Both the position numbers and the translations under genes were made by a program. 21,526 nt of DNA from a virus. Taxonomy: Duplodnaviria; Heunggongvirae; Uroviricota; Caudoviricetes. Each line of letters begins with the position of its first letter. Position 1 is the first letter of the stretch. Positions 514 through 19,310 of this stretch are shown here, piece by piece. The notes below the pieces were generated by a model that did not search any database, had not been told where the DNA came from, and was given only the letters and a program-made list of their open reading frames with translations. The stretch is taken from IMG/VR virus record IMGVR_UViG_2778261179_000011; one strand, given 5' to 3'.

Positions 514-542
514 ATAAAAACGAGCCGTAAGCGAACATTCAG

Positions 543-782
543 ATGAACGAGCAAGAAATTTACGCACAAATCAAAAAAGCTCTGCAAGAGGCACCTCGCA
601 ATCAATACACCGCTGAGCTGCATCTGCAAATGATCAAATATGCTGATGAGCTAAAGAACATCACAGCCAAAGAGTTTTGTGAAGGGGTGGGCCTGCGGAG
701 CAGCTTTGGCACCGAATTTAGCAAAATGCGCAATCTGACTCAGCGCTTGAAAGCTGCCGGGCTCGATACAGCCAAGCTATAA
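543..782 (+). CDS. Small hypothetical protein, 79 aa; possible regulator
   Basis: ATG start, preceded by the inverted repeat at 491-513 and followed 52 bp later by hsdM. No family recognised from sequence. Confidence 0.4.
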   Translation: MNEQEIYAQIKKALQEAPRNQYTAELHLQMIKYADELKNITAKEFCEGVGLRSSFGTEFSKMRNLTQRLKAAGLDTAKL

Positions 783-834
783 CGACTCAAATTTAATCGT
801 GCCGGGCCAATGCTCGGTAATGTAAGGAACAACC

Positions 835-3255: not shown

Positions 3256-4643
3256 CAAATTTTTCGGGAAAACCTCTTTCTCCAAAAACAGGGAACGCCG
3301 CTTGCGGCAGCCCGCAGGGCGGAGGCAGGGATAGCCGACGTAATGGAGTGGCGGAAGTGAGTTCGACATATCTAGCGGAAATGGCTTCGCCCACAGTTCC
3401 CGTTGGATTTAAGCCAACAGAAGTTGGGGTGATTCCTGAAAATTGGGAAGTAATTCAACTTGGTGATTGCACATCTTATGTTGGATCGGGGAAAACTAAT
3501 ACGAAATCCAGAGGTGAATACCCCCTATATGGCTCGACTGGCTTAATTGGAAGTTGCGAAAGACCTGAATACTCTGGTGAAGCGTTGCTAGTTGCGCGTG
3601 TTGGTGCAAATGCTGGAAGGTTGAATTATGTTTGTGGTGAATATGGTGTTTCGGATAACACAATATTAGTTAAAACTAAGCCAGAACATAGCATTGATTA
3701 CTTAAAATATTGGTTGATACGAAAAAATCTAAACACTCTAGTTTTTGGGTCAGGTCAGCCGCTCATAACAGGAACACAACTTAAAGAATTGGCTCTGCCT
3801 CTCCCATCGAAGACAGAACAAGCCGCCATTGCCAATGCCCTATCCGATGTCGATGCGCTGATCGGCGAGCAGGAAAAACTGATCGCCAAAAAACAGGCCA
3901 TCAAAACCGCCACCATGCAACAACTCCTCACCGGCCGCACCCGCCTGCCGCAGTTCGCCCTGCGTGAAGATGGCACGCCCAAAGGCACCAAGCCAAGTGA
4001 ATTGGGCGAAATACCTGAGGATTGGGAGGTTGTGGAGTTTGGCTGCACATTGAAGGAATTTCGAAATGGGTATGCTTTCTCGGCAAATGGATACTCCTCT
4101 ACTGGAACACCAATCATTACTATGGCTCAAATTGGACTTTCAGGCTCATTTCAGTTTGATATCTCCAAGGTGAATAAATGGGATTCGGAACAACAGGATT
4201 CGCTTAAGGAGTTTTGGGTTCGAGACGGTGATCTCCTAATAGCGATGACTGATGTGACTCCAGATAAAAATCTTATCGGTCAAATGACAATCGCTAAGTT
4301 AGGTGGTATAGCACTTCTAAACCAACGCGTTGGCTTGCTTCGGCTTAAAAATGAAATTGCTTATACGGGATACTTTAGTTTTCTGAGCTGTTTGCCTGTT
4401 TGGAAAACATATTGTAAGGGTGTTGCTTCGTTAGGGGTGCAGGCAAATATCGGTACGTCAGATATCAGAAAAGCAAAGGTGCCGCTCCCATCCATAAAAG
4501 AACAAACCGCCATTGCCTCTATCCTCTCCAATATGGACGCAGAGATTCAGGCGCTGGAACAACGCCTTGGCAAAACCCGCCAAATCAAACAAGGCATGAT
4601 GCAAGAACTGCTCACGGGTAAAACACGGCTGCCAATCACGTAA
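3252..4643 (+). CDS. hsdS: Type I restriction-modification specificity subunit HsdS (two target-recognition domains)
   Basis: ATG at 3252 overlaps the hsdM stop (ATGA). Two TRD starts (VIPENWEVIQLGD; EIPEDWEVVEFG) and two conserved repeats ending LLTG(R/K)TRLP. Start is uncertain: the first ~42 codons are low-complexity and GC-rich, and ATG at 3378 (MASPTVPVGF...) is an alternative. Confidence 0.85.
   Translation: MTNFSGKPLSPKTGNAACGSPQGGGRDSRRNGVAEVSSTYLAEMASPTVPVGFKPTEVGVIPENWEVIQLGDCTSYVGSGKTNTKSRGEYPLYGSTGLIGSCERPEYSGEALLVARVGANAGRLNYVCGEYGVSDNTILVKTKPEHSIDYLKYWLIRKNLNTLVFGSGQPLITGTQLKELALPLPSKTEQAAIANALSDVDALIGEQEKLIAKKQAIKTATMQQLLTGRTRLPQFALREDGTPKGTKPSELGEIPEDWEVVEFGCTLKEFRNGYAFSANGYSSTGTPIITMAQIGLSGSFQFDISKVNKWDSEQQDSLKEFWVRDGDLLIAMTDVTPDKNLIGQMTIAKLGGIALLNQRVGLLRLKNEIAYTGYFSFLSCLPVWKTYCKGVASLGVQANIGTSDIRKAKVPLPSIKEQTAIASILSNMDAEIQALEQRLGKTRQIKQGMMQELLTGKTRLPIT
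3809..3950 (+). repeat. HsdS central conserved repeat (direct repeat copy 1)
   Basis: Encodes TEQAAIANALSDVDALIGEQEKLIAKKQAIKTATMQQLLTGRTRLP; clearly related at the protein and DNA level to copy 2 at about 4494-4634. Confidence 0.7.
4494..4634 (+). repeat. HsdS C-terminal conserved repeat (direct repeat copy 2)
   Basis: Encodes KEQTAIASILSNMDAEIQALEQRLGKTRQIKQGMMQELLTGKTRLP; direct repeat of the 3809-3950 segment, flanking TRD2. Confidence 0.7.
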
Positions 4644-4653
4644 GGACACGAAT

Positions 4654-6072
4654 ATGTCACCAGACACCTCCACACATAGGCTGCATGAGCAAGTTAAATC
4701 GGTTTATCAGCTCCTGAGCGAGCCACAGCTGCATATTCCTAACTACCAGCGCCCATACAAATGGACAGCAGACAACCTCCAAGCGCTACTCACCGATTTA
4801 CGCAACTACCGCGATAAATCGGCGTATCGCTTGGGTACGGTGGTGTTTCATCACAACTCAGAGCATTTGGATATTGTTGATGGCCAACAACGCACCCTAA
4901 CCTTAATGCTACTGGTTAAAGCCATTGCTGAACACATGCAGGAGCATAAAGACTTAATCCAGCGCAAAGACTTAAGCGAGCAAATAGCCGAACTGGTTAC
5001 CAATATTGATGCTTTTTTAAGCACACAACCCGACAGCCCCCACAGCGGCATCACCCATACCAACCTTTATCAAAACTACCAAGCGGCTAAGCGGGCAGTG
5101 GCACAGCCTGAGTTTGGCGAAGCAGATATTGCGTTTTTACTGCATAAATGCCAAGTCGTCACCTTTGTGTTGAATGATATTTCTGAGGCGTTTCAGTTTT
5201 TTGACTCACAAAACAGCCGTGGCCGCGACTTAAACCCGCACGACTTACTCAAGGCCTATCATTTACGCGAGTTTCCCGAGCATGAAGCGGCACTCAAAGC
5301 CGAAGCCGTTAAAGACTGGGAAAGCCAAAAAAGCCACGAACTAGCCAGGGTATTTGCCCACTACCTGTATCGCATTCGCCACTGGGTTAATAACCAGCAG
5401 GCCCACTACTTTAGCAAAGACGATATTGGGCTATTTAAGGGCGTGAATCTGTATCAGGCAGCCCATTATCCTTACACCCAAGCGCTGCGCATTCAGCACG
5501 AGCAGGTGGATAACTACAATAATCACTTTCAGCGCAAGCTAGACCAAAACACGCTGGCGTTTCCGTTTCAGCTCGATCAAATCGTAATTAATGGGCGGCG
5601 CTTTTTTGAAATGATTGCGCACTACCAAGCGCTGATTAACAGCCTAACCGGCGAGGCATTAACCAAACAGTCCAGCATTCCTTTATCAGACCGTGCACAG
5701 CAGATTCTTAACGCGCTCAATAGCTATGGGGCACGGCATCGAACGGGCGATCGTTATATCCGCATGCTGTTTGACTGTGCGCTGCTGTATTACTTCGATA
5801 AATTTGGCAAAGAGCAACTATCAGAAGCGATCGAAAAGTTTTTCATCTGGGCCTATAGCTGCCGCTTAACCAGCCACGCTGTGTATATCGAAACCATGGA
5901 TAACCACGCCCGCAACAGCAAACTGTTTAAATTAATCCAGTCCGCCATTAGCCCAAAACAAGTACTGGCGCTGCCTTTAAAAACCCTCACCCCCGCTGAT
6001 CTCAAGGCAAGTAAGATGGGCGATTTGGTTAAGCTATTCGAAGGAATGAAATACTATGTCGAATCCAAATAA
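4654..6072 (+). CDS. DUF262 (ParB/Srx-like nuclease fold) protein, 472 aa, GmrS-like; no recognisable HNH C-terminus
   Basis: RBS AAGGA 8 nt upstream. N-terminal ...IPNYQRPYKW... and DGQQR motif (4879-4893), both hallmarks of DUF262. Starts 10 bp after the hsdS stop. Confidence 0.75.
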   Translation: MSPDTSTHRLHEQVKSVYQLLSEPQLHIPNYQRPYKWTADNLQALLTDLRNYRDKSAYRLGTVVFHHNSEHLDIVDGQQRTLTLMLLVKAIAEHMQEHKDLIQRKDLSEQIAELVTNIDAFLSTQPDSPHSGITHTNLYQNYQAAKRAVAQPEFGEADIAFLLHKCQVVTFVLNDISEAFQFFDSQNSRGRDLNPHDLLKAYHLREFPEHEAALKAEAVKDWESQKSHELARVFAHYLYRIRHWVNNQQAHYFSKDDIGLFKGVNLYQAAHYPYTQALRIQHEQVDNYNNHFQRKLDQNTLAFPFQLDQIVINGRRFFEMIAHYQALINSLTGEALTKQSSIPLSDRAQQILNALNSYGARHRTGDRYIRMLFDCALLYYFDKFGKEQLSEAIEKFFIWAYSCRLTSHAVYIETMDNHARNSKLFKLIQSAISPKQVLALPLKTLTPADLKASKMGDLVKLFEGMKYYVESK

Positions 6073-8086
6073 GATAACGAGCTTTTCCATTAGGCAGCTG
6101 TTAGCAGATCACGCCTCCTATCAGATCCCTATGTATCAGCGTAACTATGCGTGGGAAAAAGGCGAAATTGATCAGCTGATTCAGGATGTTGTTGATTATC
6201 AAGTCCAAAAAAAGCCTTACTACATCGGCAGCTTAGTGGTGTATCCACGGGATAATCAGCTATTTGAAGTGATTGACGGCCAGCAACGCTTTACCACGCT
6301 CACGCTAATTGCTTTATGTTTGAAGCACTTCAGCATGTTGGCTGAAAAAGAAGGGACAACGTCTGTTAATAAAGTTGACATGAGTTGGTATCAAACGCCT
6401 AATTTATGCTTTGAAAGCCGCGCTAACTCAACCCTCACCCTTGAAAAAATAACAGCCTTTAGCGCCTCTACTGCTAAGCATTTGTCACTAGATCCAGCCG
6501 ATATTAATCAGTGCAACAGCGCTATTTTAAATGGCTTTAACTTGGTGCAGCAGGCGTTATCTGAGCTTGCTAAACAGCATGACCTACATCAGTTTTGTGA
6601 GTACTTATTTGATTGGGTAAAAATCACCCGCGTCCCCGTTCCCCACGACACTGATTTAACCCATTACTTTGAGGCGATGAATAATCGCGGGGAACAGCTA
6701 GAAAAACACGAAGTGCTAAAAGCCAGAATGCTCTCTGTGCTGCAAGATGCCAGCCACCAACACCCTGAGAATAAAAGCGCGCAGGAAGTGCTCAATAAAG
6801 TGTGGAATGCCTGCGCCAATATGGAGCGTTATGTGCAGTTTGGCTTTAACCCCATCGAGCGCCAGCAGATCTTTGGCAATGAGTGGCAAAAATTTACCGC
6901 TAACAGCTTTACTGAGCTTCATCACGCGCTAATAGCCCCTGAAAACAGAGCAGCCAACACCACAGTCGACACTCATAGTGATGAGCCAGCCGCCAAATCA
7001 CTGGCTGAAATGTTGAACACACCTTATACCGATAAACAGGCAGAAACAGATAAAAATCAACCATCGCCTGAACGCTTTAACAGCGTGATTAATTTTTCTA
7101 ACTTTTTATTGCAGGTCTTAAGGGTTTACAGCCAAAAAGACATTTCTTTGGACGATAAGCAGTTAATTGATCAGTTCGAAACGCATATTTTGCACGCAGA
7201 CGAGGCAGCAGAAAAAGTTAAAGCGTTTGTGTTTGCCTTATTAAAATCCAAATACCTATTTGATCACTACGTGATAAAACGCGATGCGACGGCTCAGGAC
7301 AAGTGGGGCATCAAGCAATTAAAACGCTATGAGCGCAATAGCCAAAGCTACGTCAATACCTTTGCCCAAAACGATCAGCCTGATACCACTCACTCGCAAT
7401 TAAATCAGCGCATTGTTTTATTACTAAGCGCCTTTCATGTCTCTACGCCCACCATGAACTACAAGCACTGGTTAACCGGCGTTTTGCATATCCTGCATCA
7501 ACTGCACGCCAAGCAACTCGATGCAGACAACTATTTAAAGGCACTCGAAAAGCTCGCCAGAAGCTTTATCTATGGGCGTTATTTGGCTAAAACAGCGGCT
7601 GATTATTACACACTGATTTTTGATAACCCGAAGGACTATCAACCCTTAGCGGACACGTGTTTTTTACGGTGTCGCTTGCGCTATGGTTCGATTAAAAACA
7701 ACTTTGTATTTAACTATTTAGATTATTTGCTGTGGTGCACCACCCAAGATAAGGACCTGGTGTATCGTGAGTTTGAATTTAGTTTTAGAAGCTCGGTCGA
7801 GCATTTCTACCCACAAGATCCCTACTCTGGCGAACCATTAGAGGATGGGCCTTTGCATAGTTTTGGTAACCTATGCCTAATTAGCCACAGCAAAAACTCT
7901 AAGCTCAGCAACTACCAACCCACGGCTAAAAAAGAGCACTTTCAAGCAGCCAGCACCCAAGGCAAAATCGACTCACTCAAGCTGTATGAAATGACTCGGG
8001 TTAAAGTATGGGATGCAGATGCTATCCACAAGCATGAAACCCAAATGCTGGGATTGTTTATTAAGGATTCTGAGGGAGAAAAATGA
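6056..8086 (+). CDS. DUF262 + DUF1524 (His-Me finger/HNH-like) protein, 676 aa; GmrSD-like putative modification-dependent (Type IV-like) restriction endonuclease
   Basis: N-terminal ...IPMYQRNYAW... with DGQQR (6275-6289). C-terminal SVEHFYPQ...GNLCLISHSKNSKLSN (about 7793-7915), typical of the DUF1524 nuclease module. Overlaps the previous gene by 17 bp and hsdR by 4 bp. Confidence 0.75.
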   Translation: MSNPNKITSFSIRQLLADHASYQIPMYQRNYAWEKGEIDQLIQDVVDYQVQKKPYYIGSLVVYPRDNQLFEVIDGQQRFTTLTLIALCLKHFSMLAEKEGTTSVNKVDMSWYQTPNLCFESRANSTLTLEKITAFSASTAKHLSLDPADINQCNSAILNGFNLVQQALSELAKQHDLHQFCEYLFDWVKITRVPVPHDTDLTHYFEAMNNRGEQLEKHEVLKARMLSVLQDASHQHPENKSAQEVLNKVWNACANMERYVQFGFNPIERQQIFGNEWQKFTANSFTELHHALIAPENRAANTTVDTHSDEPAAKSLAEMLNTPYTDKQAETDKNQPSPERFNSVINFSNFLLQVLRVYSQKDISLDDKQLIDQFETHILHADEAAEKVKAFVFALLKSKYLFDHYVIKRDATAQDKWGIKQLKRYERNSQSYVNTFAQNDQPDTTHSQLNQRIVLLLSAFHVSTPTMNYKHWLTGVLHILHQLHAKQLDADNYLKALEKLARSFIYGRYLAKTAADYYTLIFDNPKDYQPLADTCFLRCRLRYGSIKNNFVFNYLDYLLWCTTQDKDLVYREFEFSFRSSVEHFYPQDPYSGEPLEDGPLHSFGNLCLISHSKNSKLSNYQPTAKKEHFQAASTQGKIDSLKLYEMTRVKVWDADAIHKHETQMLGLFIKDSEGEK

Positions 8087-11000
8087 GTAACGTCGGCCAG
8101 CGTGAACGCATGACCCAACAGCGCATTGTTGAGCTGTTTCAAACGGATTTAGGCTACCGCTATTTAGGTAACTGGGAATACCGCGATAACAATAAAAACA
8201 TAGAAGTTGAGCTACTAACGAGCTGGCTGAAAAAGCGCGGCATAAGCGAGGCGCTGATTAATCGCGTGATTCGTCAGCTAGACAGCGCAGCGGCGCTGGG
8301 CGAAGGTAAAAAGCTCTATTACGCCAACAAAGAGGTTTATCGCCTGCTGCGTTACGGCGTGAAAGATAAAGAAGGTGCTGGCCATCTTAATGAAACCGTG
8401 TGGCTGATTGACTGGAAAAATCCAGAAGCAAACGATTTTGCCATTGCCGAAGAAGTCTCTATCAAGGGTGAAAACAAAAAATGCCCAGACATAGTGCTGT
8501 ATGTCAATGGTATCGCTCTAGGTGTGATTGAGCTGAAACGCTCTTCGGTGTCTGTCTCTGAGGGTATTCGCCAGAACCTCGATAACCAAAAGAAAGATTT
8601 TATCCGTAACTTCTTCACCACCATGCAATTGGTGATGGCGGGTAACGACACGCAAGGCTTGCGTTACGGCACGATTGAAACCCCGGAGAAGTATTATCTT
8701 GAATGGAAAGAAGAGATAGAGAACGGGTATAGCCATAAGCTCGACTTTCACCTGAGCCGCGTATGCAATAAAGCGCGTTTTTTACAGATCATCCACGATT
8801 TTATTGTTTTCGATGCGGGTATTAAAAAGACCTGTCGTCACAATCAGTTCTTTGGTATTGAAGCGGCAAAACGCCATATCGCAAGGCGTGAAGGCGGCAT
8901 TATTTGGCATACGCAAGGTTCTGGCAAAAGCCTCACTATGGTGTGGTTGGCCAAATGGATACGTGAAAATGTCAAAGACGCCCGTGTATTGATCGTGACC
9001 GATCGTACCGAGCTGGATGAGCAGATAGAAAAAGTATTCACCGGTGTTGAGGAAGATATTTATCGCACCAAAAGCGGTGCCGATTTGGTGGCGACGCTCA
9101 ATCAGCCCAACCCTTGGTTGGTATGCTCTTTAGTCCATAAATTTGGTCGGCAGTCTGATTCGGAAAACGATACCGCGACGGATGAGTTTATTGCCGAGTT
9201 AAAGAAATCCCTACCATCGGACTTTAAAGCCAAAGGCGACCTATTCGTATTTGTTGATGAATGCCACCGTACTCAATCGGGCAAGTTGCACGAAGCGATG
9301 AAGTCCATTCTGCCAGAAGCCATGTTTGTCGGCTTCACCGGCACCCCCTTGATGAAGAAAGACAAGAAAAAATCGGTTGAGGTATTTGGCCCTTACATTC
9401 ACACCTATAAGTTTGATGAAGCTGTGGCCGATGGCGTTGTGCTCGATTTACGCTACGAAGCACGAGACATCGACCAAAATGTCACGTCGCAGAAAAAGGT
9501 CGATGAATGGTTTGAAGCCAAAACTCGCGGCTTATCTCGATTAGCGAAAACCCAGTTGAAACAGAAATGGGGCACCATGCAAAAGGTGCTGTCCAGTAAA
9601 TCGCGTTTGCAGCAGATTGTGAATGATATCTTGCTGGATATGGACACTAAGCCACGCCTGATGGATGGCTACGGCAATGCCATGTTGGTCTGCTCTAGTG
9701 TCTATCAAGCTTGTAAAGCTTATGAAATGTTCAGCCAAACAGATTTAGCCGGCAAGGTGGCTATTGTCACCAGTTTTCAGCCGACCGCTGCGAGCATTAA
9801 AGGGGAAGAAACCGGTGAAGGCTTAACGGAAAAGCTCTTTAAGTACGATATTTACCGCAAAATGCTTGCGGATTACTTCGAGCAACCGGAAGACAAGGCC
9901 GCTAACCGAGTTGAAGAGTTTGAAAAAGAAGTTAAAAAACAATTTATTGATGAGCCAGGGCAAATGCGCTTGCTCATCGTGGTCGATAAGTTGCTGACTG
10001 GCTTCGACGCCCCTTCGGCTACCTATTTGTATATCGACAAACAGATGGCTGATCACAATCTGTTTCAGGCCATTTGCCGCGTGAACCGCTTGGATGGCGA
10101 TGATAAAGAATACGGTTACATCATTGACTACAAAGATCTGTTCCGCTCGTTGGATAAAGCGATTTCTGATTATACTCAAGGCGCATTTGATGGTTATGAC
10201 AAGGAAGACGTTGCAGGGCTGCTGAAAGATCGTTTAGAGCAAGCCAAGCTCGATTTGGATAATGCGCTGGAAATGGTGCGCGCCTTGTGTGAGCCGGTAA
10301 AAGCGCCACGCAACACGGAAGACTACATTTATTATTTTTGTGGTAAGTCAGGTCTGAACCAAGACGAGCTCACCGAGAAAGAAGCACTGCGTTTAACGCT
10401 TTATCAGAACGTTGCCAAACTGCTGCGTGCGTTCGCCAATATCGCCAATGAAATGCCTGATGCAGGCTATTCTGCGCAAGATGTAGACTCGATAAGAACA
10501 GAAGTGGCTCATTTTGAAAAAGTCCGTGACGAAGTAAAACTGGCCAGTGGCGATTTGGTAGAAATGAAACGCTTTGAGCCTGCGATGCGCCATTTGTTAG
10601 ATATGTATATTCGTGCGGATGACAGCGAAGTACTGATGGATTTTGAAGAGCTGGGGCTTATTGAGCTCATTGTCGAAAAAGGCGCTGATGCCGTGGAGGC
10701 TTTGCCTGATAGTATTCGCAAGAATCAGGAAGCCATGGCCGAAACCATCGAAAATAACGTGCGTAAAACCATCGTTGATGAAAACCCGGTTAACCCCAAG
10801 TATTACGAGCAAATGTCGGTGTTATTGGATGAGCTGATTGAGCTTCGTCGCCAAAAAGCGATTGAATATCAAGAGTATTTGGAAAAAATCCGCGAGCTGT
10901 CTCGTAAGGTTATACGTCCGGAGCAGACAGCGGCTAACTATCCGCCATCGATGGACTCTAATCCAAAACGCGCGTTTTACGATAATTTTGGTCAAGATGA

Positions 11001-11175
11001 ATTGCTGGCTACCAAAATAGATAGTGCCATTCGTTATACCAAAAAAGCGGATTGGGTCGGAGATCGCTTTAAGGAGCGAGAAATTGCCAATGCGGTGCGA
11101 GAAGAAACGACGGGGTATGAGGTGGATATTCAGGGTGTAATGGAATTGGCAAAAGCGCAAAAAGAGTACCATTGA
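8083..11175 (+). CDS. hsdR: Type I restriction enzyme endonuclease/translocase subunit HsdR (1030 aa)
   Basis: N-terminal PD-(D/E)xK nuclease motif (PDIVLYVNGIALGVIELK). SF2 helicase motifs: Walker A HTQGSGKSLT (about 8911-8940), motif II FVDECHR (about 9253-9273), motif III FTGTP. ATGA overlap with the upstream gene. Confidence 0.9.
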   Translation: MSNVGQRERMTQQRIVELFQTDLGYRYLGNWEYRDNNKNIEVELLTSWLKKRGISEALINRVIRQLDSAAALGEGKKLYYANKEVYRLLRYGVKDKEGAGHLNETVWLIDWKNPEANDFAIAEEVSIKGENKKCPDIVLYVNGIALGVIELKRSSVSVSEGIRQNLDNQKKDFIRNFFTTMQLVMAGNDTQGLRYGTIETPEKYYLEWKEEIENGYSHKLDFHLSRVCNKARFLQIIHDFIVFDAGIKKTCRHNQFFGIEAAKRHIARREGGIIWHTQGSGKSLTMVWLAKWIRENVKDARVLIVTDRTELDEQIEKVFTGVEEDIYRTKSGADLVATLNQPNPWLVCSLVHKFGRQSDSENDTATDEFIAELKKSLPSDFKAKGDLFVFVDECHRTQSGKLHEAMKSILPEAMFVGFTGTPLMKKDKKKSVEVFGPYIHTYKFDEAVADGVVLDLRYEARDIDQNVTSQKKVDEWFEAKTRGLSRLAKTQLKQKWGTMQKVLSSKSRLQQIVNDILLDMDTKPRLMDGYGNAMLVCSSVYQACKAYEMFSQTDLAGKVAIVTSFQPTAASIKGEETGEGLTEKLFKYDIYRKMLADYFEQPEDKAANRVEEFEKEVKKQFIDEPGQMRLLIVVDKLLTGFDAPSATYLYIDKQMADHNLFQAICRVNRLDGDDKEYGYIIDYKDLFRSLDKAISDYTQGAFDGYDKEDVAGLLKDRLEQAKLDLDNALEMVRALCEPVKAPRNTEDYIYYFCGKSGLNQDELTEKEALRLTLYQNVAKLLRAFANIANEMPDAGYSAQDVDSIRTEVAHFEKVRDEVKLASGDLVEMKRFEPAMRHLLDMYIRADDSEVLMDFEELGLIELIVEKGADAVEALPDSIRKNQEAMAETIENNVRKTIVDENPVNPKYYEQMSVLLDELIELRRQKAIEYQEYLEKIRELSRKVIRPEQTAANYPPSMDSNPKRAFYDNFGQDELLATKIDSAIRYTKKADWVGDRFKEREIANAVREETTGYEVDIQGVMELAKAQKEYH

Positions 11176-11888
11176 TGCCTAAGGTAGAAATTGGTTCTAT
11201 TGCGATGCAGTTAAATCGTAAGGCAATTAAAAACCTTCATATCAGCGTGTTGCCACCTGATGGGCGTGTGCGTGTTTCTGCTCCTGAATCTATGACAGAA
11301 ACCGCAATCCGTATGGCAGTGATCAGCCGCATTCCTTGGATCAAGAAACAGCAGAGTGTTTTTGCCAAACAACCTCGCCAATCTGATCGAGCAATGGTTA
11401 GCGGTGAATGTCATTACCTGTGGGGCAGGCGTTATCGTCTGAATCTTATCGAGCGTTCCGGAAAGCATGAAATCAAGCTAGGTCGTGGTCGATTGCATTT
11501 ATATGTCAATCCCGCAACAACGCTTGAGAACAAGGCACTGGTACTGAACTCATATTATCGAGATGCACTTAAAACGCGAATCGCTGAGTTATTGCCTGTT
11601 TGGGAAGATAAGATCGGCGTTAAAGCTGTAGATTGGGGAATTAAAAAGATGAAAACCAAGTGGGGCAGCTGCAATATTCAGGCAAAGCGCATTTGGCTAA
11701 ATTTAGAGCTTGCTAAAAAGCCACCGGAGTGTTTGGAGTACATCCTAGTGCATGAATTGGTGCACTTGCTTGAGCGTAATCACAATGAACGCTTCAAGGG
11801 GTATATGGACAAGCTACTTCCCGATTGGCGAGAGCGCAGAGATTTGTTGAATCGGATGCCCTTGGCGCACAACGATTGGGTGTACTAG
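11175..11888 (+). CDS. M48-family / YgjP-like (DUF45) zinc-dependent hydrolase, ~237 aa
   Basis: HExxH zinc-binding motif HELVHLLE (11751-11774) preceded by WGSC. ATG at 11175 overlaps the hsdR stop (TGATG); the track ORF starts 3 nt earlier at TTG 11172. This family is commonly found directly downstream of hsdR. Confidence 0.75.
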   Translation: MPKVEIGSIAMQLNRKAIKNLHISVLPPDGRVRVSAPESMTETAIRMAVISRIPWIKKQQSVFAKQPRQSDRAMVSGECHYLWGRRYRLNLIERSGKHEIKLGRGRLHLYVNPATTLENKALVLNSYYRDALKTRIAELLPVWEDKIGVKAVDWGIKKMKTKWGSCNIQAKRIWLNLELAKKPPECLEYILVHELVHLLERNHNERFKGYMDKLLPDWRERRDLLNRMPLAHNDWVY

Positions 11889-12284
11889 GAAAATTATGCA
11901 GAGTTTGCATGGTTAGCCTGATTATGTATGTGGCGCGTAATTTGAGATAAACTTGATAGTAAAAGCGGGAAATGGATTTCATTTCTCCGATATTTTGCTC
12001 AGGTGCTGTCGCTAAAAGTGTCAAGATTCTATCTTTACGCTTGGCGGCCAATACTCCCGCAGTACCTACCCAGAAAATAGCCAATATTGGGATCAACTTA
12101 ACAGTTTTGGCTTTGTTTATTATAAAAACCAGCACTTTCAATTAGTTGAATGGTTTATTCGCTAGTTTATGTGAACTACCGTTCTAACGAATAGAACACC
12201 CCGAGATATTGCTTTCGCTGGTGGGAAAACATTCCTAACCAACCTGAAGGCGCAATACATCAGTTTTTAAGCAGAGAAAAGACT

Positions 12285-13079
12285 ATGACAGCACAAAATA
12301 CTAAAACAATTCAATACCGCCTGCGTAATGGCCAGAGTGTCGAAGTGACCATCAATAATGATGGTGTACCTGGCGAAAAGGTTTCTATCTCTGATCTGGC
12401 TATCGAAAAAACCATCATGTGCCACCTTGGCTTTACTGAAGAAGTGAGCAAAAAGCATGGTGTAGCTATCTGGCGCACAATGGATACTGGAATGCGCAGA
12501 TTCATTACTGCTCGTACCCCTGGTATGACCATGATGGACCTCATACAGATTGCGCCGCTGTTTGAGTGTGAACCTTTGGATGTATTCAGCAATCCAGCTA
12601 TCTGCCAGCAGTTATATGGTGAGATGAAACTCGCGGTTACCCCCATTGTGCTGCATGAAGGATCGCTTGCTGGCGTATGGAAAGTAGAGCGAATTTCAAG
12701 CTACATGCCATTCCACATCCATGTCAACGGCGTAATCGCAGGTGAAAATCAACCTGTTTCAGTTACAAAGTCAGACCTCAATCGCGCAATTCTTGAAGCA
12801 AGTTGTCGAGTTATCGGCCTGGGCAAACAGTCTTATGTTTCCTTCCCGGCTGGTCCTGAAGGCCCGGCAGAAATTCTGATTATGGATGCCGATCTGCTCT
12901 GGCAAATACAGTTTCTGATTGGCAAAAGCATCATCCGCGCTGAAGAACTCGATCAGTACATTACCTGCACGATGACGGATGAAGTCAAAAGTGTGGCTAT
13001 AGCCAATGCCCGGAAGCTATGTCGTGCTGCATTAACAGAACTGCAAGAAAACACCACGGAAGAAGTGGAAAGCGATTAA
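12285..13079 (+). CDS. Hypothetical protein, 264 aa, function unknown
   Basis: Clean ATG ORF after a ~400-bp AT-rich intergenic region; ends 3 bp before a strong hairpin terminator. No motif recognised. Confidence 0.5.
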   Translation: MTAQNTKTIQYRLRNGQSVEVTINNDGVPGEKVSISDLAIEKTIMCHLGFTEEVSKKHGVAIWRTMDTGMRRFITARTPGMTMMDLIQIAPLFECEPLDVFSNPAICQQLYGEMKLAVTPIVLHEGSLAGVWKVERISSYMPFHIHVNGVIAGENQPVSVTKSDLNRAILEASCRVIGLGKQSYVSFPAGPEGPAEILIMDADLLWQIQFLIGKSIIRAEELDQYITCTMTDEVKSVAIANARKLCRAALTELQENTTEEVESD

Positions 13080-13081
13080 AA

Positions 13082-13105
13082 AAAATCCCGCCGATTGGCG
13101 GGATT
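13082..13105. terminator. Bidirectional rho-independent terminator (10-bp perfect stem AAATCCCGCC / GGCGGGATTT, 4-nt loop)
   Basis: Read directly from sequence. Minus-strand orientation is followed by a U-run of 8 or more (A-run 13076-13084 on plus); plus-strand orientation by TTTCTTC. Sits between convergent genes 12285-13079 (+) and 13109-13426 (-). Confidence 0.65.
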
Positions 13106-13108
13106 TCT

Positions 13109-13426
13109 TCAATATACGATCTGGTCTACATGATCCCCAAAATCATCGTCGTCATCGTCGTCGTCCTCATCGCCACCCTCTACTGCTGGCCAATCAACAA
13201 ACCAGCCAGCGTAAAGATGCAGCGTTCGGAGAACATCACTTGCGGGAGCATCAAGGGTGTTAACGAATCCCATATAGCTATTGGGATTTGCCCCAGCTAT
13301 GGCTTCAGCGATCATGTCCTCGGTAATGTCACCGGAGATAATGCTTAAACGCCCGGAAACTTCTTCATTATCATCAAATTCGATAATGGCATCTCCGCCT
13401 AATGGCGCTGCGATTTTAATCTGCAT
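13109..13426 (-). CDS. Highly acidic small protein, 105 aa, with a D8 tract (DEDDDDDDDDFGD); last gene of the dar-like operon
   Basis: About 26 Asp/Glu against about 3 Lys/Arg. Poly-Asp encoded by a (GAY)n run at 13142-13171. Overlaps the upstream 995-aa gene by 11 bp. Confidence 0.5.
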   Translation of the reverse strand: MQIKIAAPLGGDAIIEFDDNEEVSGRLSIISGDITEDMIAEAIAGANPNSYMGFVNTLDAPASDVLRTLHLYAGWFVDWPAVEGGDEDDDDDDDDFGDHVDQIVY

Positions 13427-16403
13427 TATTTAGCTCCTTTGCCACACCTAATAACAGTTCCAGCAATCCGTCACCATTCATCAGTGATGCGGCAGCGGCC
13501 TCTTTGTCATGATACAACTGAAGAGCCATAGAGAATACTTCCGTTGCTGACGTTTTGGAAATAGTCGGGGATTTCTGCCGAATTTTCCCAGTGTTACTTA
13601 CTGAGGCTGGCGGGTATACCTTCGCCATATAAATATTACTCAATCGAGATCTGAAGCACCATTCAGGCTTGCCACGCCCACCGATATTAACGAAAGATGG
13701 CTTATCCCCTTCAACATTGGCCTTCAGGAATGACCGGGCTTTCTCTAACAAACCAGGGTTACTGTACTCAAGATGATGACCCAGCTCGTGCCACAGTGCA
13801 CTTGCATTTTCATCGTTCAAATTGACAGCAACAACACCATTAAGATTTGCATATGCCCTTCCCTGGTGGTGAACCACCTTTGATAAGGTCGAAATTTTAC
13901 CGCCGGTCAGGCGATAAATATCAGCAAGTTCCTTGCGCAGGTCTATCCCACCATTCTGTCCAGCGCGGGCTTCTTCCACTTCTTCCGTGATAAAAGAGTC
14001 GGCCCACTCAAGAGCTTTTTCTTCAGATACGGATGAGTTGGCGATCGCACTGTTCATGGCAGATAACACTTTCTCGTGGACCGAACCCATACTTCGCTGA
14101 TTCATTTGCCAGCGTGTCTGCGGGTTATATGAGAATCGCTTAAGTAGTTGGTCAAGCTGCTCAAGTTCTTCTTCACTGACATACTTTTTAGCCTCACCAA
14201 TAATGCCAGGGAGAATATTGCCGTTAGGATTAAACGCTCGCGAAAGGAAGAGTTTCAGCGCCCCCATGCCCTCCGATGCTTCAATATCACCAATAACCCG
14301 GTTAACAATGGCCGCACTCTTCGGATTAGCATCCGCCAACGCTCTGGCTACGATTTGCAGGGACGATACGACCTCACGCTGCATATCAGTCCTGATCTCA
14401 TCAATAAACTCTGGCGTTATGCCGTGCTCTTTAAGGATATCCCTGCCTTCCGCCGTTACCCCATCGATATCACCGACATGTTTATTAACCTGACTTTGCA
14501 ATGCCTTAAATGCCTTCAGAATTCCACGGGCATCATCAGCTTTACTAACGGCCTTCCTGAATACTGGCAAGAAGTCAGAGTTAACCTCATTTTGTTGATC
14601 GGCCCACTGAATGGAGGCTTCTTTCATCTCGTCCAGAGTCAGATCACCCAACGCGGTATGGTCTGTGAATATGAGCGACAACCTCTGAACCATTTCTGCC
14701 AATGGTGATGCCGAATGCGCCGCGCTAAGGAATGCTTTCACCCTGGTTGGGCGAATGGAAAACCAGTCAATAGCTGGTGGCATATCTCCGTTTTTTATCG
14801 CCTGCGCTATCTCATCAAAGCCGTCGCGCCCAAGGGAGGATGCGTGATTTAACAATCCGCGAAGTAACGAATTGCTGATACCGAATAATCGGCACCATTT
14901 TTTTACGTCGGCAACAGGCATTCGGACAAAATGCGCAAGCACTTGTACAAGCTGCTCATCCTGGGGATCGGTGCGGGATAGCAGCCTGATCAGATGAATA
15001 ATGTCTTTGATTCCGGATGCCCGATGTAATAGCAAGCTGGTATATGGAGCAACACCGTTGTAACTACCGCCGGAAGCTGACTCGAAAAGACCGCCGGATA
15101 TCCCTTGCATACCTTCGTTTTCCAGTTCCTGAGATACCTGGCGAAGGATATCCTGTAACGACACATCACCGCCGCCAAACATATCCCCGAGCGCCTGGCC
15201 CTGGTGCTGTAACTCATCATTGATACGTTGTGCCATCAACTTAAAGGCGGTGGCCATACGCTTCGCGCTACGGTTATTCGCGACGATAAACAACGCGAGT
15301 GCTTTCACTTCCGGGGCCGTTTCGCTGAACATATCCCCCTGAGCAATAACATCGGTAATATGTTGGCCTGACTCCTTCGATTGCCTTACCAGGTCTACCG
15401 CATCTTTCAATGCAGCCAGCGCCTTTTTATCGAGGCTATCCGCTGTTTCAATGCTATCAACGATAGTTGTCACAGCCTGCTTGTGCGCTTCTCCTGATAA
15501 AGCCTGCATCTGGACAAAATCATTGGCCGCCGCATTAAGCGCCGTCAGAACATTACGCATATCCGGATCAGGTTCTTCTGCAACCATCCTTACCAAGCGC
15601 GCATCCTTATATGCCTTGGCAAAGATCGCGTTTTGTATCCGGTCAACAAGTTGCCGTGTTGGTCGCCCATCTTCAGTTACAAGTCCAGCCGCCTGTGTGG
15701 CACCAACTTGCGTCATAAATCCGCGAATAAACGCGTCATTACTGCGGCTAAGCAGATCTCCGCTTTCTGACGGGTTAAAAAGCGCCATCATCGCCGGTGT
15801 TATGCTGTCGGCATCAACAAAAGCCTTTTCACTGGCTGCCATTTCCTGAAGATCAGAAATATTTGAGTCTTTGGCAAACTGAACGCGGTCAACCTTAGTT
15901 AACCGGCGGCGCACCAGTACCGGAGCCGTCATTGATTCAACCTTTTCAGGACGTATGCCGAATTCGCTCGCATGTTCAATCAGGTACTCCCGATACCGAT
16001 CCGCATTGCCGTCCTGATAGGCTTTAATGATCCCCATGGTTCGTCCATTACCTGACTCAACGGCATTGTCCTCACCAATTATCGGCGCTCCATGGCTGGA
16101 TAAACCGGAGTCGGTAAGCTGAGCAGGCCGCAAATCCTTGGATATCTGGTTAACCTGAAGAATACTGGATGCGCGGGTCCGGTCGCGCGGCTGAAGTTCC
16201 TGGGGATAGTCCGGATTAATTTTCCCGTCCAGAGTATTGGATACCAAAAGAGCTGAGGCATCGACGATATCAAACGCTGTTTTTACCTCGTCTCCCTTCG
16301 CTGTCACCACATACGAAACCCGCCCATAATCGGGCAGGTTCTTTAGCAGCTCGATCAGCGTTTCTATGCTGGTGGCCATTACCACCTGATCGCTTAAGCT
16401 CAT
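13416..16403 (-). CDS. ddrB: DdrB-like large protein, 995 aa, with an HExxH zincin motif near the C-terminus
   Basis: ATG start. HELGHH encoded at 13773-13790 (verified by reverse-complementing the DNA). Size and position after the ddrA-like and darA-like genes match the P1 darA operon as I recall it. Confidence 0.6.
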   Translation of the reverse strand: MSLSDQVVMATSIETLIELLKNLPDYGRVSYVVTAKGDEVKTAFDIVDASALLVSNTLDGKINPDYPQELQPRDRTRASSILQVNQISKDLRPAQLTDSGLSSHGAPIIGEDNAVESGNGRTMGIIKAYQDGNADRYREYLIEHASEFGIRPEKVESMTAPVLVRRRLTKVDRVQFAKDSNISDLQEMAASEKAFVDADSITPAMMALFNPSESGDLLSRSNDAFIRGFMTQVGATQAAGLVTEDGRPTRQLVDRIQNAIFAKAYKDARLVRMVAEEPDPDMRNVLTALNAAANDFVQMQALSGEAHKQAVTTIVDSIETADSLDKKALAALKDAVDLVRQSKESGQHITDVIAQGDMFSETAPEVKALALFIVANNRSAKRMATAFKLMAQRINDELQHQGQALGDMFGGGDVSLQDILRQVSQELENEGMQGISGGLFESASGGSYNGVAPYTSLLLHRASGIKDIIHLIRLLSRTDPQDEQLVQVLAHFVRMPVADVKKWCRLFGISNSLLRGLLNHASSLGRDGFDEIAQAIKNGDMPPAIDWFSIRPTRVKAFLSAAHSASPLAEMVQRLSLIFTDHTALGDLTLDEMKEASIQWADQQNEVNSDFLPVFRKAVSKADDARGILKAFKALQSQVNKHVGDIDGVTAEGRDILKEHGITPEFIDEIRTDMQREVVSSLQIVARALADANPKSAAIVNRVIGDIEASEGMGALKLFLSRAFNPNGNILPGIIGEAKKYVSEEELEQLDQLLKRFSYNPQTRWQMNQRSMGSVHEKVLSAMNSAIANSSVSEEKALEWADSFITEEVEEARAGQNGGIDLRKELADIYRLTGGKISTLSKVVHHQGRAYANLNGVVAVNLNDENASALWHELGHHLEYSNPGLLEKARSFLKANVEGDKPSFVNIGGRGKPEWCFRSRLSNIYMAKVYPPASVSNTGKIRQKSPTISKTSATEVFSMALQLYHDKEAAAASLMNGDGLLELLLGVAKELNNAD

Positions 16404-16415
16404 CCCTGTTACGCC

Positions 16416-16781
16416 TTATGCTGCCTCTTTAATGTTGGCGGCTATCCATGCCGCCGTGTGCTGTTTAACCTGGTCCAGGTCGATGTATGTGCCAACATAT
16501 TGACTCAAGTCCTGCAAGGTACCGATAAATGCATCTGTGCTCTGATCGACGAATTTATCAGCCAGGAAATCAGCAACCAGTTTTGGCACACCATCATGTT
16601 CCGAAGGTTGTTTTTCATCGCCACTACCACCGCCGGACGCGCCGTACCCCATCTGTTGCATGATCTGGTCAATTTCATCGCTGATATCCAGCAACTCCAT
16701 GCCACTCGCGGTGGCCGCTTTGGACATCAGAGCATCCAACTTATCGCTGAGATCCATTAACTCAATAGCTGATAGTGTCAT
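16416..16781 (-). CDS. ddrA: DdrA-like small acidic protein, 121 aa
   Basis: ATG overlaps the stop of the upstream 639-aa gene (ATGA). Called by size and operon position only. Confidence 0.5.
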   Translation of the reverse strand: MTLSAIELMDLSDKLDALMSKAATASGMELLDISDEIDQIMQQMGYGASGGGSGDEKQPSEHDGVPKLVADFLADKFVDQSTDAFIGTLQDLSQYVGTYIDLDQVKQHTAAWIAANIKEAA

Positions 16782-18697
16782 GCCGCTACCCCCGCTTTCT
16801 GGATTGCTACCAACAGATCAGCCAGGTGGCGAGCTGCGCCGTTAACCAGCTCTTCGTTTTCCTCAAAACGTCCGGCAGCCTGAAGGGCTGCAATCGCTTC
16901 CCGGACATTGCCCCGGGCGTTACGGATCTCCGCCATGTCAGTGCTTTGCATATCCATTACGTTATTGAGATATTCAATGGCTTTATTAGCCTCTGCATCT
17001 GCTTCGCTAACCGTTTCATCAGGCTGTGCCGGGGCCGGTTCTGGCTGAGTAATCTCACCGACTTCGGCCTGCAATGCATTGATCATGCTCTGCACCATTT
17101 TCTCGGTGCCAGCGCCCCCAGGAAACGCAATATTGGGGAAAGTTTTTTGAAACTGAGTTTTCAGCATTACGCGGAACTCGTCTGGTGAGCTGGTGGCCAG
17201 CTCCAGAGCTTTTTGTGCATATTTGCCAAACGGACCATTAGTAAGTGTCTTCGCCAGGAAGTCGAAAGAATCCTCGCGAGGCAATAACTTCAGGTCGTAC
17301 TCACTCATTTGCTGATCAGAAAGCGGGGTATCGTAAGTAGCAATGCCGTAGCGTGCATATTCATAATACGGGTCACCTTCATCAGGGCGCGGCAGAATTG
17401 CTTTGTTACCTTCAGGTATTGCGCCAGGGGCCGCCGGACGCATTTGCAGGGCATATCGATATGCACCTACAGAGACTTCTGGTTCAGGCGAAGAGCTACC
17501 GGTATCCTCCGCTGGTTCAGGTTCGACGTTTTCCGGTTTATGTTCTTCTGGTTGGACCTGGTATTCCGATACATTACCCGCTTTATAGGCTTTAAACAGC
17601 TTGCCGATCGCATCTGCCATGTCCACACCCTGTATGGATTTAGCCTTGATCATGTACACGCTGCCATCCGAATCGGTTAACTGGATATACCCTTCGCCGT
17701 CCTCAATGAATTGCTTCATTGATGCACCATTACTGAGCGTCACTTCCCCGTTCATATGCATACGATTTTTGATACTGGCAAGGCGATCCATCATCGCGCG
17801 AGAGTGTCCACCAGTCATCCCCGCAGGAGCAATGGTATCGCGCCCACCAGTGCGATTGAGCTGATCAATCTCCGTCTGCAAACGCTCATTCTCTTCATAA
17901 AGAGAATCCGCTTCCGATGCAACAGCGTTAATTTTCTGCTCCAGATCTGCCTTCTGCCCTTCTACCGCTGCCACCTGATCCACGAGGTCGCTCATGGCAT
18001 CCTCTTTCTGGTCACTGTCAGCCTGTAGTTGGGTTATTTCATCAACAAGGGCTTTTTTCTTCTTCTGCGCACGCTGGAATTTTGCCGAGTTTTTCTCTGC
18101 AAGGTTGGCAAGTTTCATGGTGACCTGCGCCAGCGTCATATCACGTCCACTCATCGGAGCAACGGTATGAGTAACGTCTTTTTTATTCAGTAAGAACTGG
18201 AAAGCAATCAGCGTATCGCTATTGGTGATCCGGTTTTCCGCTGTCGGGCTATGAAACAGAATGCTGATAGTCTGACCATCACTGAGCGGAATAATGGCTG
18301 GCAGGACTGGCAGCCCGTTAACGTTACGTGCCCGGCCAATTTCAGCGCCGCCGATCGCGCGCGCGCCGCTCTGGGCCACATCCCCCGTTTTATCACTCCC
18401 CGCAGATATTCCGGTACCATTCAGCTTCTGGTTCAATGCCCGGACAAATGCCTGCATGGTCCGGTGTAACTGCAAACGAGTAGAACTAATCGCCTCCAGT
18501 AAATCCGTAGCACACCAGTGGATCGGCGTGTCATAGAAGAACGTAGCCTCGATTTCTTCCAGGGTGTTGGATTCCGTCATCAGATAGCGGTCCTCACCGG
18601 CCATTAATGCGCGATATTCATCATCAGTCACTGGCGGGGGAAGCACGTCAAGCCCAGGCTTGATCGTCACCCCTTTATTGATATTGAACTGTTCCAT
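16778..18697 (-). CDS. darA: DarA-like protein, 639 aa (antirestriction / capsid morphogenesis component in P1)
   Basis: ATG with RBS AGGAAATTAAC; central coiled-coil segment. Contains a segment paralogous to the upstream 203-aa protein (shared ...DGQ...I...NSAKFQ...), the relationship that defines P1 hdf as a homologue of a DarA fragment. Confidence 0.65.
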   Translation of the reverse strand: MEQFNINKGVTIKPGLDVLPPPVTDDEYRALMAGEDRYLMTESNTLEEIEATFFYDTPIHWCATDLLEAISSTRLQLHRTMQAFVRALNQKLNGTGISAGSDKTGDVAQSGARAIGGAEIGRARNVNGLPVLPAIIPLSDGQTISILFHSPTAENRITNSDTLIAFQFLLNKKDVTHTVAPMSGRDMTLAQVTMKLANLAEKNSAKFQRAQKKKKALVDEITQLQADSDQKEDAMSDLVDQVAAVEGQKADLEQKINAVASEADSLYEENERLQTEIDQLNRTGGRDTIAPAGMTGGHSRAMMDRLASIKNRMHMNGEVTLSNGASMKQFIEDGEGYIQLTDSDGSVYMIKAKSIQGVDMADAIGKLFKAYKAGNVSEYQVQPEEHKPENVEPEPAEDTGSSSPEPEVSVGAYRYALQMRPAAPGAIPEGNKAILPRPDEGDPYYEYARYGIATYDTPLSDQQMSEYDLKLLPREDSFDFLAKTLTNGPFGKYAQKALELATSSPDEFRVMLKTQFQKTFPNIAFPGGAGTEKMVQSMINALQAEVGEITQPEPAPAQPDETVSEADAEANKAIEYLNNVMDMQSTDMAEIRNARGNVREAIAALQAAGRFEENEELVNGAARHLADLLVAIQKAGVAA

Positions 18698-18698
18698 G

Positions 18699-19310
18699 TT
18701 AATTTCCTGCTTTCAGTTGCTTAAGACGGCGTTTGAGTTCGCCATTTCGGGCCTTTTCGTTATTGAGTCGGCCTGTCTCCTTATCCAGCTTCGCCCGCAA
18801 ATCAGTGATCTGCTGTTGATTGAAAGACACCGAGTTCTGCGCTGATTTATAAGCGGCAACCACCTGAGCATTCCGCTGTTTTGCCTCTTGCAGGCGCTGA
18901 AAGTTGGATTTTACTGCCGGTTTCTTGTCTACCGGATTGGCAACACGTTTCGCTTTGGCGATCAGTGATTTCTGGAATTTTGCGGAGTTTTTGCGGGCCG
19001 CTTGCCCCATGACGGTACCAAGCGTCTTGATATCCGGCGACTGAGCGTTAGGAATAGCTTTTCCATTCAGCCTCACAGACGATATATCGCCAGTATCGTT
19101 TACCTGTATGGCAAGAATTTGTCCGTCGTTAAGAACCAGCTTTGCGGTTTTAACTTTAACGCCATCTTTCGTTGTTGCGCGGTTGCTGGAGTCAACCTCA
19201 ATTACCGTAACACCGGTTTTATTGATCGCCGCGATAAGGGATTTCAGCCCCTTTTCATTAACCTGGTCAAAATCGACCGTTGCATACTTATTTTTCGTCA
19301 TCTGACACAT
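18699..19310 (-). CDS. hdf: Hdf-like protein (homologue of DarA fragment), 203 aa
   Basis: Shares the NSAKFQ-containing segment with the 639-aa protein. Its stop TAA abuts the darA-like ATG. Lysine-rich coiled-coil C-terminus. Confidence 0.6.
   Translation of the reverse strand: MCQMTKNKYATVDFDQVNEKGLKSLIAAINKTGVTVIEVDSSNRATTKDGVKVKTAKLVLNDGQILAIQVNDTGDISSVRLNGKAIPNAQSPDIKTLGTVMGQAARKNSAKFQKSLIAKAKRVANPVDKKPAVKSNFQRLQEAKQRNAQVVAAYKSAQNSVSFNQQQITDLRAKLDKETGRLNNEKARNGELKRRLKQLKAGN

Follow-up and report, generated by a model that had tools for sequence, protein, structure and literature searches.

The Dar system of phage P1 is the classic example of a defence against type I restriction that is delivered by the virion; its mechanism is still described as unclear (PMC12707154). 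Packaging of its proteins follows a set order, with DarA lining the inner surface of the capsid. One of them, DdrB, was recovered from the P1 virion head with 39 unique peptides and 59.5% sequence coverage (Gonzales 2022, PMC9024508), which bears out the supposition of an earlier sequence-only reading of the locus studied here that its DdrB-like product is carried in the virion. Table 1 of the same paper lists DdrB as aiding the addition of DarB to the capsid, and ddrB belongs to the group of genes needed against EcoB and EcoK. A passage of Iyer 2017 (PMC5512222), which cites Lobocka 2004 and Walker & Walker 1981, gives 76 kDa as the size to which DdrB is processed. Processing of the capsid protein (E120/S121) and of the N-terminus of DarA is credited to Pro, the prohead protease of P1 and an enzyme of the T4 gp21 type. 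Like DdrB, Pro is associated with the head, where it trims these internal head proteins; however, it is an unrelated, non-zincin enzyme encoded elsewhere in P1 (pro, beside the portal gene).

The idea that DdrB contains a metallopeptidase (MPTase) is already known, having been predicted in 2004, 2013, and 2017. The P1 RefSeq note on DdrB reads "unknown protein function; possible metallopeptidase," the annotation of phage JL22 reads "putative metallopeptidase," and the family was named by Lenart 2013. The C-terminal MPTase of P1 DdrB was explicitly identified by Iyer, Burroughs, Anand, de Souza, and Aravind in 2017, in a paper that had also independently proposed autoproteolysis of MPTase polyvalent proteins (PMC5512222). 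Among the surveyed papers that name both DdrB and DarB, none reports zinc binding or proteolysis by DdrB. [quoted passage not shown] Both ArdC and DdrB fuse a nucleic-acid-related N-terminal module to a C-terminal HExxH peptidase, and both counter type I restriction on incoming DNA, whereas the ArdC-N ssDNA-binding domain has no Pfam match in DdrB, whose N-terminus is a ddrB-ParB module instead.

Results

The window, by which we mean the whole stretch of 21,526 nucleotides analysed here (IMG/VR record IMGVR_UViG_2778261179_000011), encodes a 995-residue protein that is, by sequence comparison, the orthologue of P1 DdrB. Its gene aligned over the whole length with ddrB of P1, P7, and other Punavirus records at 97.6-98% nucleotide identity, the comparison with P1 giving 97.6% identity and 100% coverage across all 2988 bases. 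P1 DdrB (YP_006491.1, P1_gp022) is equal in length and operon position and diverges by only ~2%, and phrog_2299 matched the protein end to end. The gene order, hxr-ddrB-ddrA-darA-hdf-lydB-lydA, is that of P1, whereas the variable region beside ddrB holds a type I restriction-modification island in the window and IS1/isaB in P1. The products of ddrA, darA, and hdf (16416..19310) are likely partners or substrates of DdrB (Table 1).

Table 1. Features of ddrB and the adjoining Dar genes in the window
Feature	Residues	Position	Strand	Description or basis
ddrB CDS	995 aa + stop	13416..16403	(-)	Dar antirestriction / internal head protein of a P1-like phage
ddrB-like ParB domain	36-167	15903..16298	(-)	Pfam PF18763, E 3.4e-39
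Variable all-alpha middle region	447-769	14097..15065	(-)	AF2 model; low conservation in alignment A3
Zincin-like MPTase domain	~770-995	13419..14096	(-)	C-terminal
HELGHH	872-877	13773..13790	(-)	Encoded as CACGAGCTGGGTCATCAT
E879	879	13767..13769	(-)	Invariant acidic residue, 3 positions past the motif (HExxHxxE)
Y925 to Y930	925-930	13614..13631	(-)	PYVGKVY-type motif with the family tyrosines
E955	955	13539..13541	(-)	TEVFSM motif; invariant Glu at the N-terminus of helix aa 956-962
ddrA		16416-16781	(-)	ORF list; P1 and JL22 annotation; Dar operon, upstream of ddrB
darA		16778-18697	(-)	ORF list; P1 and JL22 annotation; Dar operon, upstream of ddrB
hdf		18699-19310	(-)	ORF list; P1 and JL22 annotation; Dar operon, upstream of ddrB

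The full-length AF2 model of DdrB (pLDDT 82, pTM 0.53) and the alignments revealed three parts. A highly conserved N-terminal module runs to about aa 445 in alignment A3, a low-confidence linker (aa 431-446) precedes the variable middle region, and the stretch homologous to other MPTase proteins begins ahead of the C-terminal domain, at about aa 640-660. Two weak spots, at aa 711-730 and aa 751-770, could be where processing takes place. Matches to [LIV]-x-E-[ASG] occur at aa 439, 735, and 809 and adjoin low-confidence linkers. Residues 1-700 have a calculated mass of 76.4 kDa and residues 301-995 one of 75.8 kDa; the 76 kDa form fits either a product of aa 1 to ~700, which lacks the protease domain, or one of aa ~300-995, which keeps it.

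HELGHH is the sole HExxH in DdrB, and the count expected by chance, given how much His and Glu the protein contains, is 0.026. The 15 main ORFs that were translated from the window contain just one other HExxH, the HELVH of a YgjP-like metallopeptidase at 11172-11888. The sequence-only reading had set the motif about 120 residues before the C-terminus, and translation agrees, giving 124 residues with H872 included. HELGH (aa 872-876) lies inside a predicted helix spanning aa 867-881. A word-index homologue search with the domain returned close relatives only, and an exhaustive search was used for the wider set. That reading also turned on the motif being kept in homologues and belonging to a zincin-like fold, and both hold: H872, E873, and H876 were invariant in all 152 matches covering the site, and the predicted structure is zincin-like. 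These three residues, together with E879, Y925, and E955, were likewise invariant in the alignments of full-length homologues (A1, 80 sequences) and of the domain only (A2, 30 sequences), in A3 (42 sequences), and in 73 of 73 distinct IMG/VR viral domain sequences; Y930 was conserved at ≥99%.

The predicted domain has the gluzincin core fold: a mixed beta-sheet, then the active-site helix, then a second helix. The last ~225 residues of DdrB would form an intact gluzincin-type zinc metallopeptidase, with H872 and H876 on the HExxH helix as predicted zinc ligands, E873 as the predicted general base, and E955, on the next long helix, as the predicted third zinc ligand. E879, E914, Y925, and Y930 would line the site, E879 as a second-shell or active-site residue. 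The two tyrosines may resemble the catalytic Tyr of M34 peptidases. Both the model and the conservation pattern agree with the description of polyvalent MPTases as a three-stranded sheet, an HExxH helix, and a third-ligand Glu on a second C-terminal helix (Iyer 2017, PMC5512222). The same paper describes an acidic residue at HExxH+3 for phage-type MPTases, and in one phage MPTase clade that it defines, strand 2 ends in a conserved His and position HExxH+3 is Asp, whereas the DdrB family has the invariant E879 at that position and, in A2, no conserved His before the motif. From these residues, DdrB probably belongs to another of the 12 MPTase clades. Taken as a whole, the C-terminus of DdrB is very probably a true peptidase domain of zincin fold that selection has maintained.

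We assign this domain to the phage "polyvalent-protein MPTase" group, since it is a zincin domain fused to ddrB-ParB in a virion protein encoded in the late Dar operon; in its homologues the fusion partner is ParB or MuF. Pfam returned no family for the C-terminal domain at E≤1, nor at E≤10 with DdrB itself as the query, NCBIfam has no model matching it, and other members of the family gave only sub-threshold Pfam matches. The M34 ATLF profile (PF07737) left DdrB itself unmatched and matched 2 of 30 family members (E 0.021). No solved structure is close to the domain by sequence or Foldseek. Its nearest structural neighbours are M34 peptidases, namely anthrax lethal factor and the Pro-Pro endopeptidases PPEP-2 and PPEP-3, together with MtfA, at a sequence identity of only 12-15%; these are secreted toxins or peptidases, whereas DdrB, a phage protein, is intracellular and associated with the virion. 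The DdrB MPTase domain is a divergent, phage-specific clade. When PDB sequences were searched with the domain-only profile A2, one weak zincin match appeared, a botulinum-like light chain (E 0.41). Full-length DdrB gave only noise against PDB chains (e.g., saposin, E~1), and the full-length profile A1 was dominated by coiled-coil artefacts (MutS2, septin, dynactin) and was set aside. Alignment of A2 with the YgjP-like zincin of the window by hhalign paired the motif helix alone, at an uninformative probability of 3%.

An initial scan of viral contigs yielded near-identical P1-like loci only and was repeated from a distant first sequence. Across 80 loci, a DarA-like gene was present in 45, a DarB-like gene in 29, and both in 28. 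In 33 of 59 diverse viral loci, a DdrB-type MPTase without the ParB module closely followed a DarA_N gene (Pfam DarA_N in the upstream neighbour), usually as the very next gene, and a DarB-like gene often lay beyond it. Uncultured phages carry MPTase-only proteins of ~600 aa at the position of DdrB, in the order DarA_N, small ORF, MPTase, with a DarB-like gene further downstream; at one such locus (L003), the small ORF between the DarA_N and MPTase genes gave E 0.026 in a single comparison with P1 DdrA. Dar operons of Vibrio P1-like phages contain hdf, darA, a ParB+InPase DdrB, and darB, and lack the MPTase; the protease is therefore dispensable for Dar assembly in general.

Discussion

Because the metallopeptidase prediction was first printed in 2004 and received its formal statement in 2017, the present result is a confirmation rather than a discovery. 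What is new in this analysis is that the MPTase clade is linked, in many uncultured phages, to DarA_N/DarB cassettes; the Vibrio counter-example, a confident model, and the list of invariant residues are further contributions.

In our assessment, the best explanation, at a probability of roughly 0.55, is that DdrB carries an intact gluzincin peptidase that performs limited proteolysis of Dar internal-head cargo. The cuts would fall either in DdrB itself, at an inter-domain linker, or in co-packaged DarA-like or DarB-like polyvalent proteins; they would be made during head assembly or ejection and would leave the cargo correctly packaged or released. Counting cis and trans cleavage together, we would give even odds that Dar cargo is indeed the substrate. 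Processing of other Dar components is plausible and is supported by the conserved pairing of DarA_N and MPTase genes. A purely cis role in separating domains is weakened by the MPTase-only homologues, in which there is no second recognised domain to be set free. By analogy with DarA and the capsid protein, Pro could equally be the trimmer of DdrB.

An alternative that we consider unlikely is that the folded module serves as an adaptor, docking DdrB to DarA-Hdf or recruiting DarB into the prohead, with catalysis irrelevant to the Dar phenotype. ArdC offers a precedent, as its metalloprotease activity is not required against HsdRMS (PMC7213743), and such a role would suit the description of DdrB as helping DarB incorporation (PMC9024508), the strong gene-order coupling to DarA_N proteins, and the location of DarA on the inner capsid surface. 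However, it leaves unexplained why E873, both His, E955, and two Tyr are absolutely invariant in hundreds of sequences that are only 22-40% identical overall. Absolute invariance at this level of divergence is a signature of selection on catalysis.

It is quite improbable that the domain is an injected effector protease that travels into the cell along with the DNA and breaks down proteins of host defence, for example the type I subunits HsdR, HsdS, and HsdM, an activity that the sequence-only reading had envisaged and that the evidence now disfavours. Dar acts in cis only, shielding no DNA but that of its own virion, and Dar+ phages fail to rescue co-infecting Dar- phages (PMC12707154), whereas a soluble protease that destroys the restriction enzyme should act in trans. 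The dispensability of protease activity in ArdC and the Vibrio Dar operons without the domain point the same way, and the Table 1 entry for ddrB in Gonzales 2022 gives aid to DarB capsid addition as its phenotype, with no direct activity listed. In addition, the 76 kDa form of DdrB may or may not keep the C-terminal domain. In favour of host attack, DdrB is a virion protein whose gene belongs to the anti-EcoB/EcoK group, and host targeting is listed as one possible MPTase role (Iyer 2017, PMC5512222). Lethal factor and the PPEPs, to which the domain is closest in structure, have specific foreign or exogenous proteins as their targets, and in Vibrio the C-terminal module is swapped for another enzymatic effector-type domain, InPase.

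We regard it as very doubtful that Pro, and not DdrB, trims DdrB while the MPTase has some other target, on which it acts exclusively in trans or not until after ejection. The processing of the capsid protein and of DarA held to be the work of Pro, along with the [LIV]-x-E-[ASG] sites beside low-confidence linkers of DdrB, would fit this arrangement; however, the motif search was permissive, and three matches in 995 residues are unremarkable. Finally, the notion that HExxH arose by chance in a non-enzymatic region, to which the shortness of the motif and the lack of a Pfam or NCBIfam model for the region lend a little colour, has a negligible probability and is refuted by the invariance of the motif and four further residues in every homologue and by the confidently predicted zincin-like fold.

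Limited proteolysis of Dar cargo by DdrB, if true, would account for how very large internal proteins come to be packaged and released in order, and it would be relevant to the engineering of P1 as a protein-delivery particle. Few catalytic sites of the Dar system lend themselves to testing by a single point mutation, and the protease domain of DdrB is among them.

DdrB carries a conserved zincin-like domain

The phage was P1-like (Punavirus), and its ddrB was 97.4-98.0% identical at the nucleotide level, over its full length, to ddrB of P1, P7, SJ46, RCS47, and 15 more records. Gene order around it was that of P1 (hxr-ddrB-ddrA-darA-hdf-lydB-lydA), and the start of hxr overlapped the 3′ end of ddrB by 11 nt (13416-13426), an arrangement shared with P1 and suggestive of translational coupling. 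A candidate ORF also lay antisense within ddrB. The HELGHH motif stood where the sequence-only reading had placed it in the 995-aa ORF and was the sole HExxH in DdrB (0.026 expected from protein composition).

That DdrB may be a metallopeptidase is already known from the literature and reference annotation. The P1 RefSeq record notes "unknown protein function; possible metallopeptidase," phage JL22 ddrB is annotated "putative metallopeptidase," and Lenart et al. are among the earlier sources. Iyer et al. identified "the C-terminal MPTase domain," proposed that it autoprocesses DdrB to a 76-kDa head protein, and discussed effector roles as an alternative (2017; PMC5512222). DdrB is still "hypothetical" in automatic annotation, and no protease-activity test was found in eight papers mentioning both DdrB and DarB.

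An exhaustive phmmer search of 1.84 billion representative proteins with aa 750-995 returned 392 homologues at E≤1e-3, of which 34 reached E≤1e-10. HExxH was kept in all 152 of the 155 sequences taken whose match covers the site; the other three were fragments whose match stops short of it. Across alignments of 80, 30 (domain-only), and 42 (full-length) sequences, 22-60% identical to DdrB, H872, E873, H876, E879, Y925, and E955 were invariant, and G835, R849, E914, K928, Y930, T954, S958, and G986 were at least 90% conserved. An independent set of distinct IMG/VR-contig domain sequences kept all six invariant residues (73/73), so the motif is clearly retained among homologues. The sole domain recognised by Pfam was ddrB-ParB at the N-terminus (aa 36-167, E 3e-39), with nothing in the DdrB C-terminus, NCBIfam matched nothing anywhere in DdrB, and a BFVD search yielded uncharacterised phage proteins only. 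Several family members had sub-threshold Pfam matches to the zincin families M91, ATLF, and reprolysin.

An AlphaFold2 model of aa 750-995, built with the 80-sequence alignment (mean pLDDT 90, pTM 0.87), placed strands first and then a long helix (aa 867-881) bearing H872, E873, H876, and E879, followed by a second helix, a small sheet with E914, Y925, and Y930, and a helix directly past E955. Its top structural neighbours were PPEP-3 (7.9), PPEP-2 (7.3), the Certhrax N-terminal domain (6.7), anthrax lethal factor (6.6, 6.3, 6.0), MtfA (6.5), edema factor (6.1), aminopeptidase N (5.5), Wss1 (5.4), Spartan (5.3), and M32 carboxypeptidase (5.3), all of them zincin peptidases or a degenerate lethal-factor-like domain. 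Domains of the lethal-factor N-terminal type are derived from zincins. Lower-ranked neighbours included thermolysin, astacin, botulinum light chain, IrrE/PprI, and minigluzincins. Foldseek against the PDB gave nothing significant, and the domain-only profile matched a single PDB sequence, a botulinum-like light chain (E 0.41, aligned on the motif). The modeled domain is thus zincin-like, as the metallopeptidase reading implied, with a gluzincin layout nearest structurally to M34 and MtfA; the family is a distinct phage clade without a curated model or solved structure. E955 is the predicted third ligand on three grounds: it is invariant, it sits at the start of a helix, and it agrees with the published account of the family (PMC5512222). 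Invariant motif and fold together support a metallopeptidase whose activity is predicted.

Whole-protein architecture

The full-length model (pLDDT 82, pTM 0.53) had three parts. Among the 42 full-length homologues, aa 1-445 were strongly conserved, aa 445-780 were variable, and conservation in the peptidase fell mostly at catalytic positions. The all-alpha middle region (~320 aa) was poorly conserved even in P1-like homologues, with conserved modules on either side; it had no significant family match and a single weak Pfam match (E 0.064). A 76-kDa form is compatible with either aa 1-~700 (76.4 kDa) or aa ~301-995 (75.8 kDa), so its size is consistent with the virion either retaining or losing the protease. 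P1 virion LC-MS/MS recovered 39 DdrB peptides covering 59.5% of the 995 residues (PMC9024508), equivalent to 85% of a 700-residue fragment; this coverage faintly hints that most of DdrB is present in the virion.

Coordinates of features in the window, in DdrB, and in other loci
Feature	Position	Strand	Remarks
Type I R-M island	835-11888	+	complete
HsdM	835-3255	+	
HsdS	3243-4643	+	
Two DUF262/GmrSD-type genes	4654-6072, 6056-8086	+	between hsdS and hsdR
HsdR	8083-11175	+	
YgjP-like zinc metallopeptidase	11172-11888	+	HELVH at aa 194
264-aa ORF	12285-13079	+	P1 isaA, 95.7% nt identity; no Pfam match
hxr	13109-13426	-	
ddrB	13416-16403	-	995 aa
HELGHH	13773-13790	-	residues 872-877; 124 residues from H872 through C-terminal end, inclusive
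Middle region	14097-15065	-	aa 447-769
132-aa candidate ORF	15451-15849	+	position of P1 iddB ("unknown protein function")
ParB + helical module	aa 1-430		full-length model
Disordered linker, then all-alpha region	aa 431-446, 450-760		full-length model
Peptidase	from ~aa 770		full-length model; lower confidence at aa 711-730 and 751-770
L003, viral locus	81-11358		DarA_N protein, 113-aa ORF, MPTase protein, 98-aa ORF, 2068-aa methylase/helicase (DarB-like), portal gene
L004, viral locus	5716-17998		DarA_N+InPase protein, MPTase protein, ORFs of 131 and 1178 aa, 2122-aa SNF2 helicase
L167, Vibrio P1-like element (GCA_016817535.1)	3983-21824		Hdf 207 aa; enlarged DarA 1485 aa; 230-aa ORF; DdrB homologue 614 aa; DarB 2247 aa, opposite strand

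Genomic context

The type I R-M island occupied the place of P1's IS1/isaB; neither IS1 nor isaB, which follow isaA in P1, matched the isaA-like region of the window. The island occurred in P1-like E. coli plasmids (NZ_CP148442.1, 92% coverage; NZ_CP061756.1) and in 0 of 50,697 phage records. One phage thus packages an anti-type-I system and carries its own type I system ~1.5 kb away.

Most MPTase homologues were ~600-650 aa, with the peptidase mid-protein and no other Pfam domain; ddrB-ParB occurred in only 11 of 80 and MuF in only 3 of 80. Batch Pfam scanning of 59 upstream same-strand neighbours from 80 diverse IMG/VR loci found DarA_N in 33 (best E 5e-50), InPase in 15, and a portal protein in 7; in these last, the MPTase gene follows the portal gene, where a minor head protein is usually encoded. 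By local profile search, a DarA-like gene was present at 45 of the 80 loci, a DarB-like gene at 29, and both at 28; what accompanies DarA and DarB is thus the peptidase portion of DdrB, not its ParB module. Dar-like cassettes occurred in uncultured phages of 60-100 kb (L003, L004, L087-L166) in the order DarA_N protein (often InPase-fused), small ORF, ~600-aa MPTase-only protein, and, further downstream, a giant methylase/helicase. The small ORF weakly resembled P1 DdrA (E 0.026).

The Vibrio P1-like DdrB homologue combined ddrB-ParB with InPase, whereas P1-type DdrB combines ParB with MPTase; the C-terminal module is therefore exchangeable. None of the Vibrio Dar proteins contained an MPTase or HExxH. 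The MPTase is modular and not obligatory for a Dar operon.

Function of the domain

We favor, at a probability of about 0.5, limited proteolysis of Dar cargo, which the domain would carry out in cis and/or in trans. The ddrB gene lies within the late Dar/head operon, Dar proteins enter the capsid in a fixed order, the MPTase is conserved beside large multi-domain DarA_N and DarB-like proteins, and Iyer et al. gave the same rationale (PMC5512222). MPTase-only homologues have nothing else to release, which makes purely cis cleavage less appealing for them and is why trans cleavage is included. A structural role in which antirestriction does not need catalysis appears unlikely; the invariant putative general base, ligands, and tyrosines argue for a working enzyme. 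Of the targets suggested by the sequence-only reading, Dar components gain support from the late operon and the DarA_N/DarB pairing. Its other target, host restriction subunits attacked by a host-directed effector, fares poorly and is improbable: Dar shields only same-particle DNA (PMC12707154), a limit that a soluble protease does not account for, the ddrB phenotype is currently taken to reflect defective DarB packaging (PMC9024508), and, by analogy, the protease activity of ArdC is dispensable for defeating HsdRMS (PMC7213743). It is also quite improbable that Pro, the P1 prohead protease, trims DdrB while the MPTase acts on something else. A DNA-tethered, cis-acting protease clearing restriction complexes off the incoming genome is a long shot, but if true would be the interesting outcome. 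What is new here is the context of the MPTase with DarA_N and DarB-like genes in other phages.
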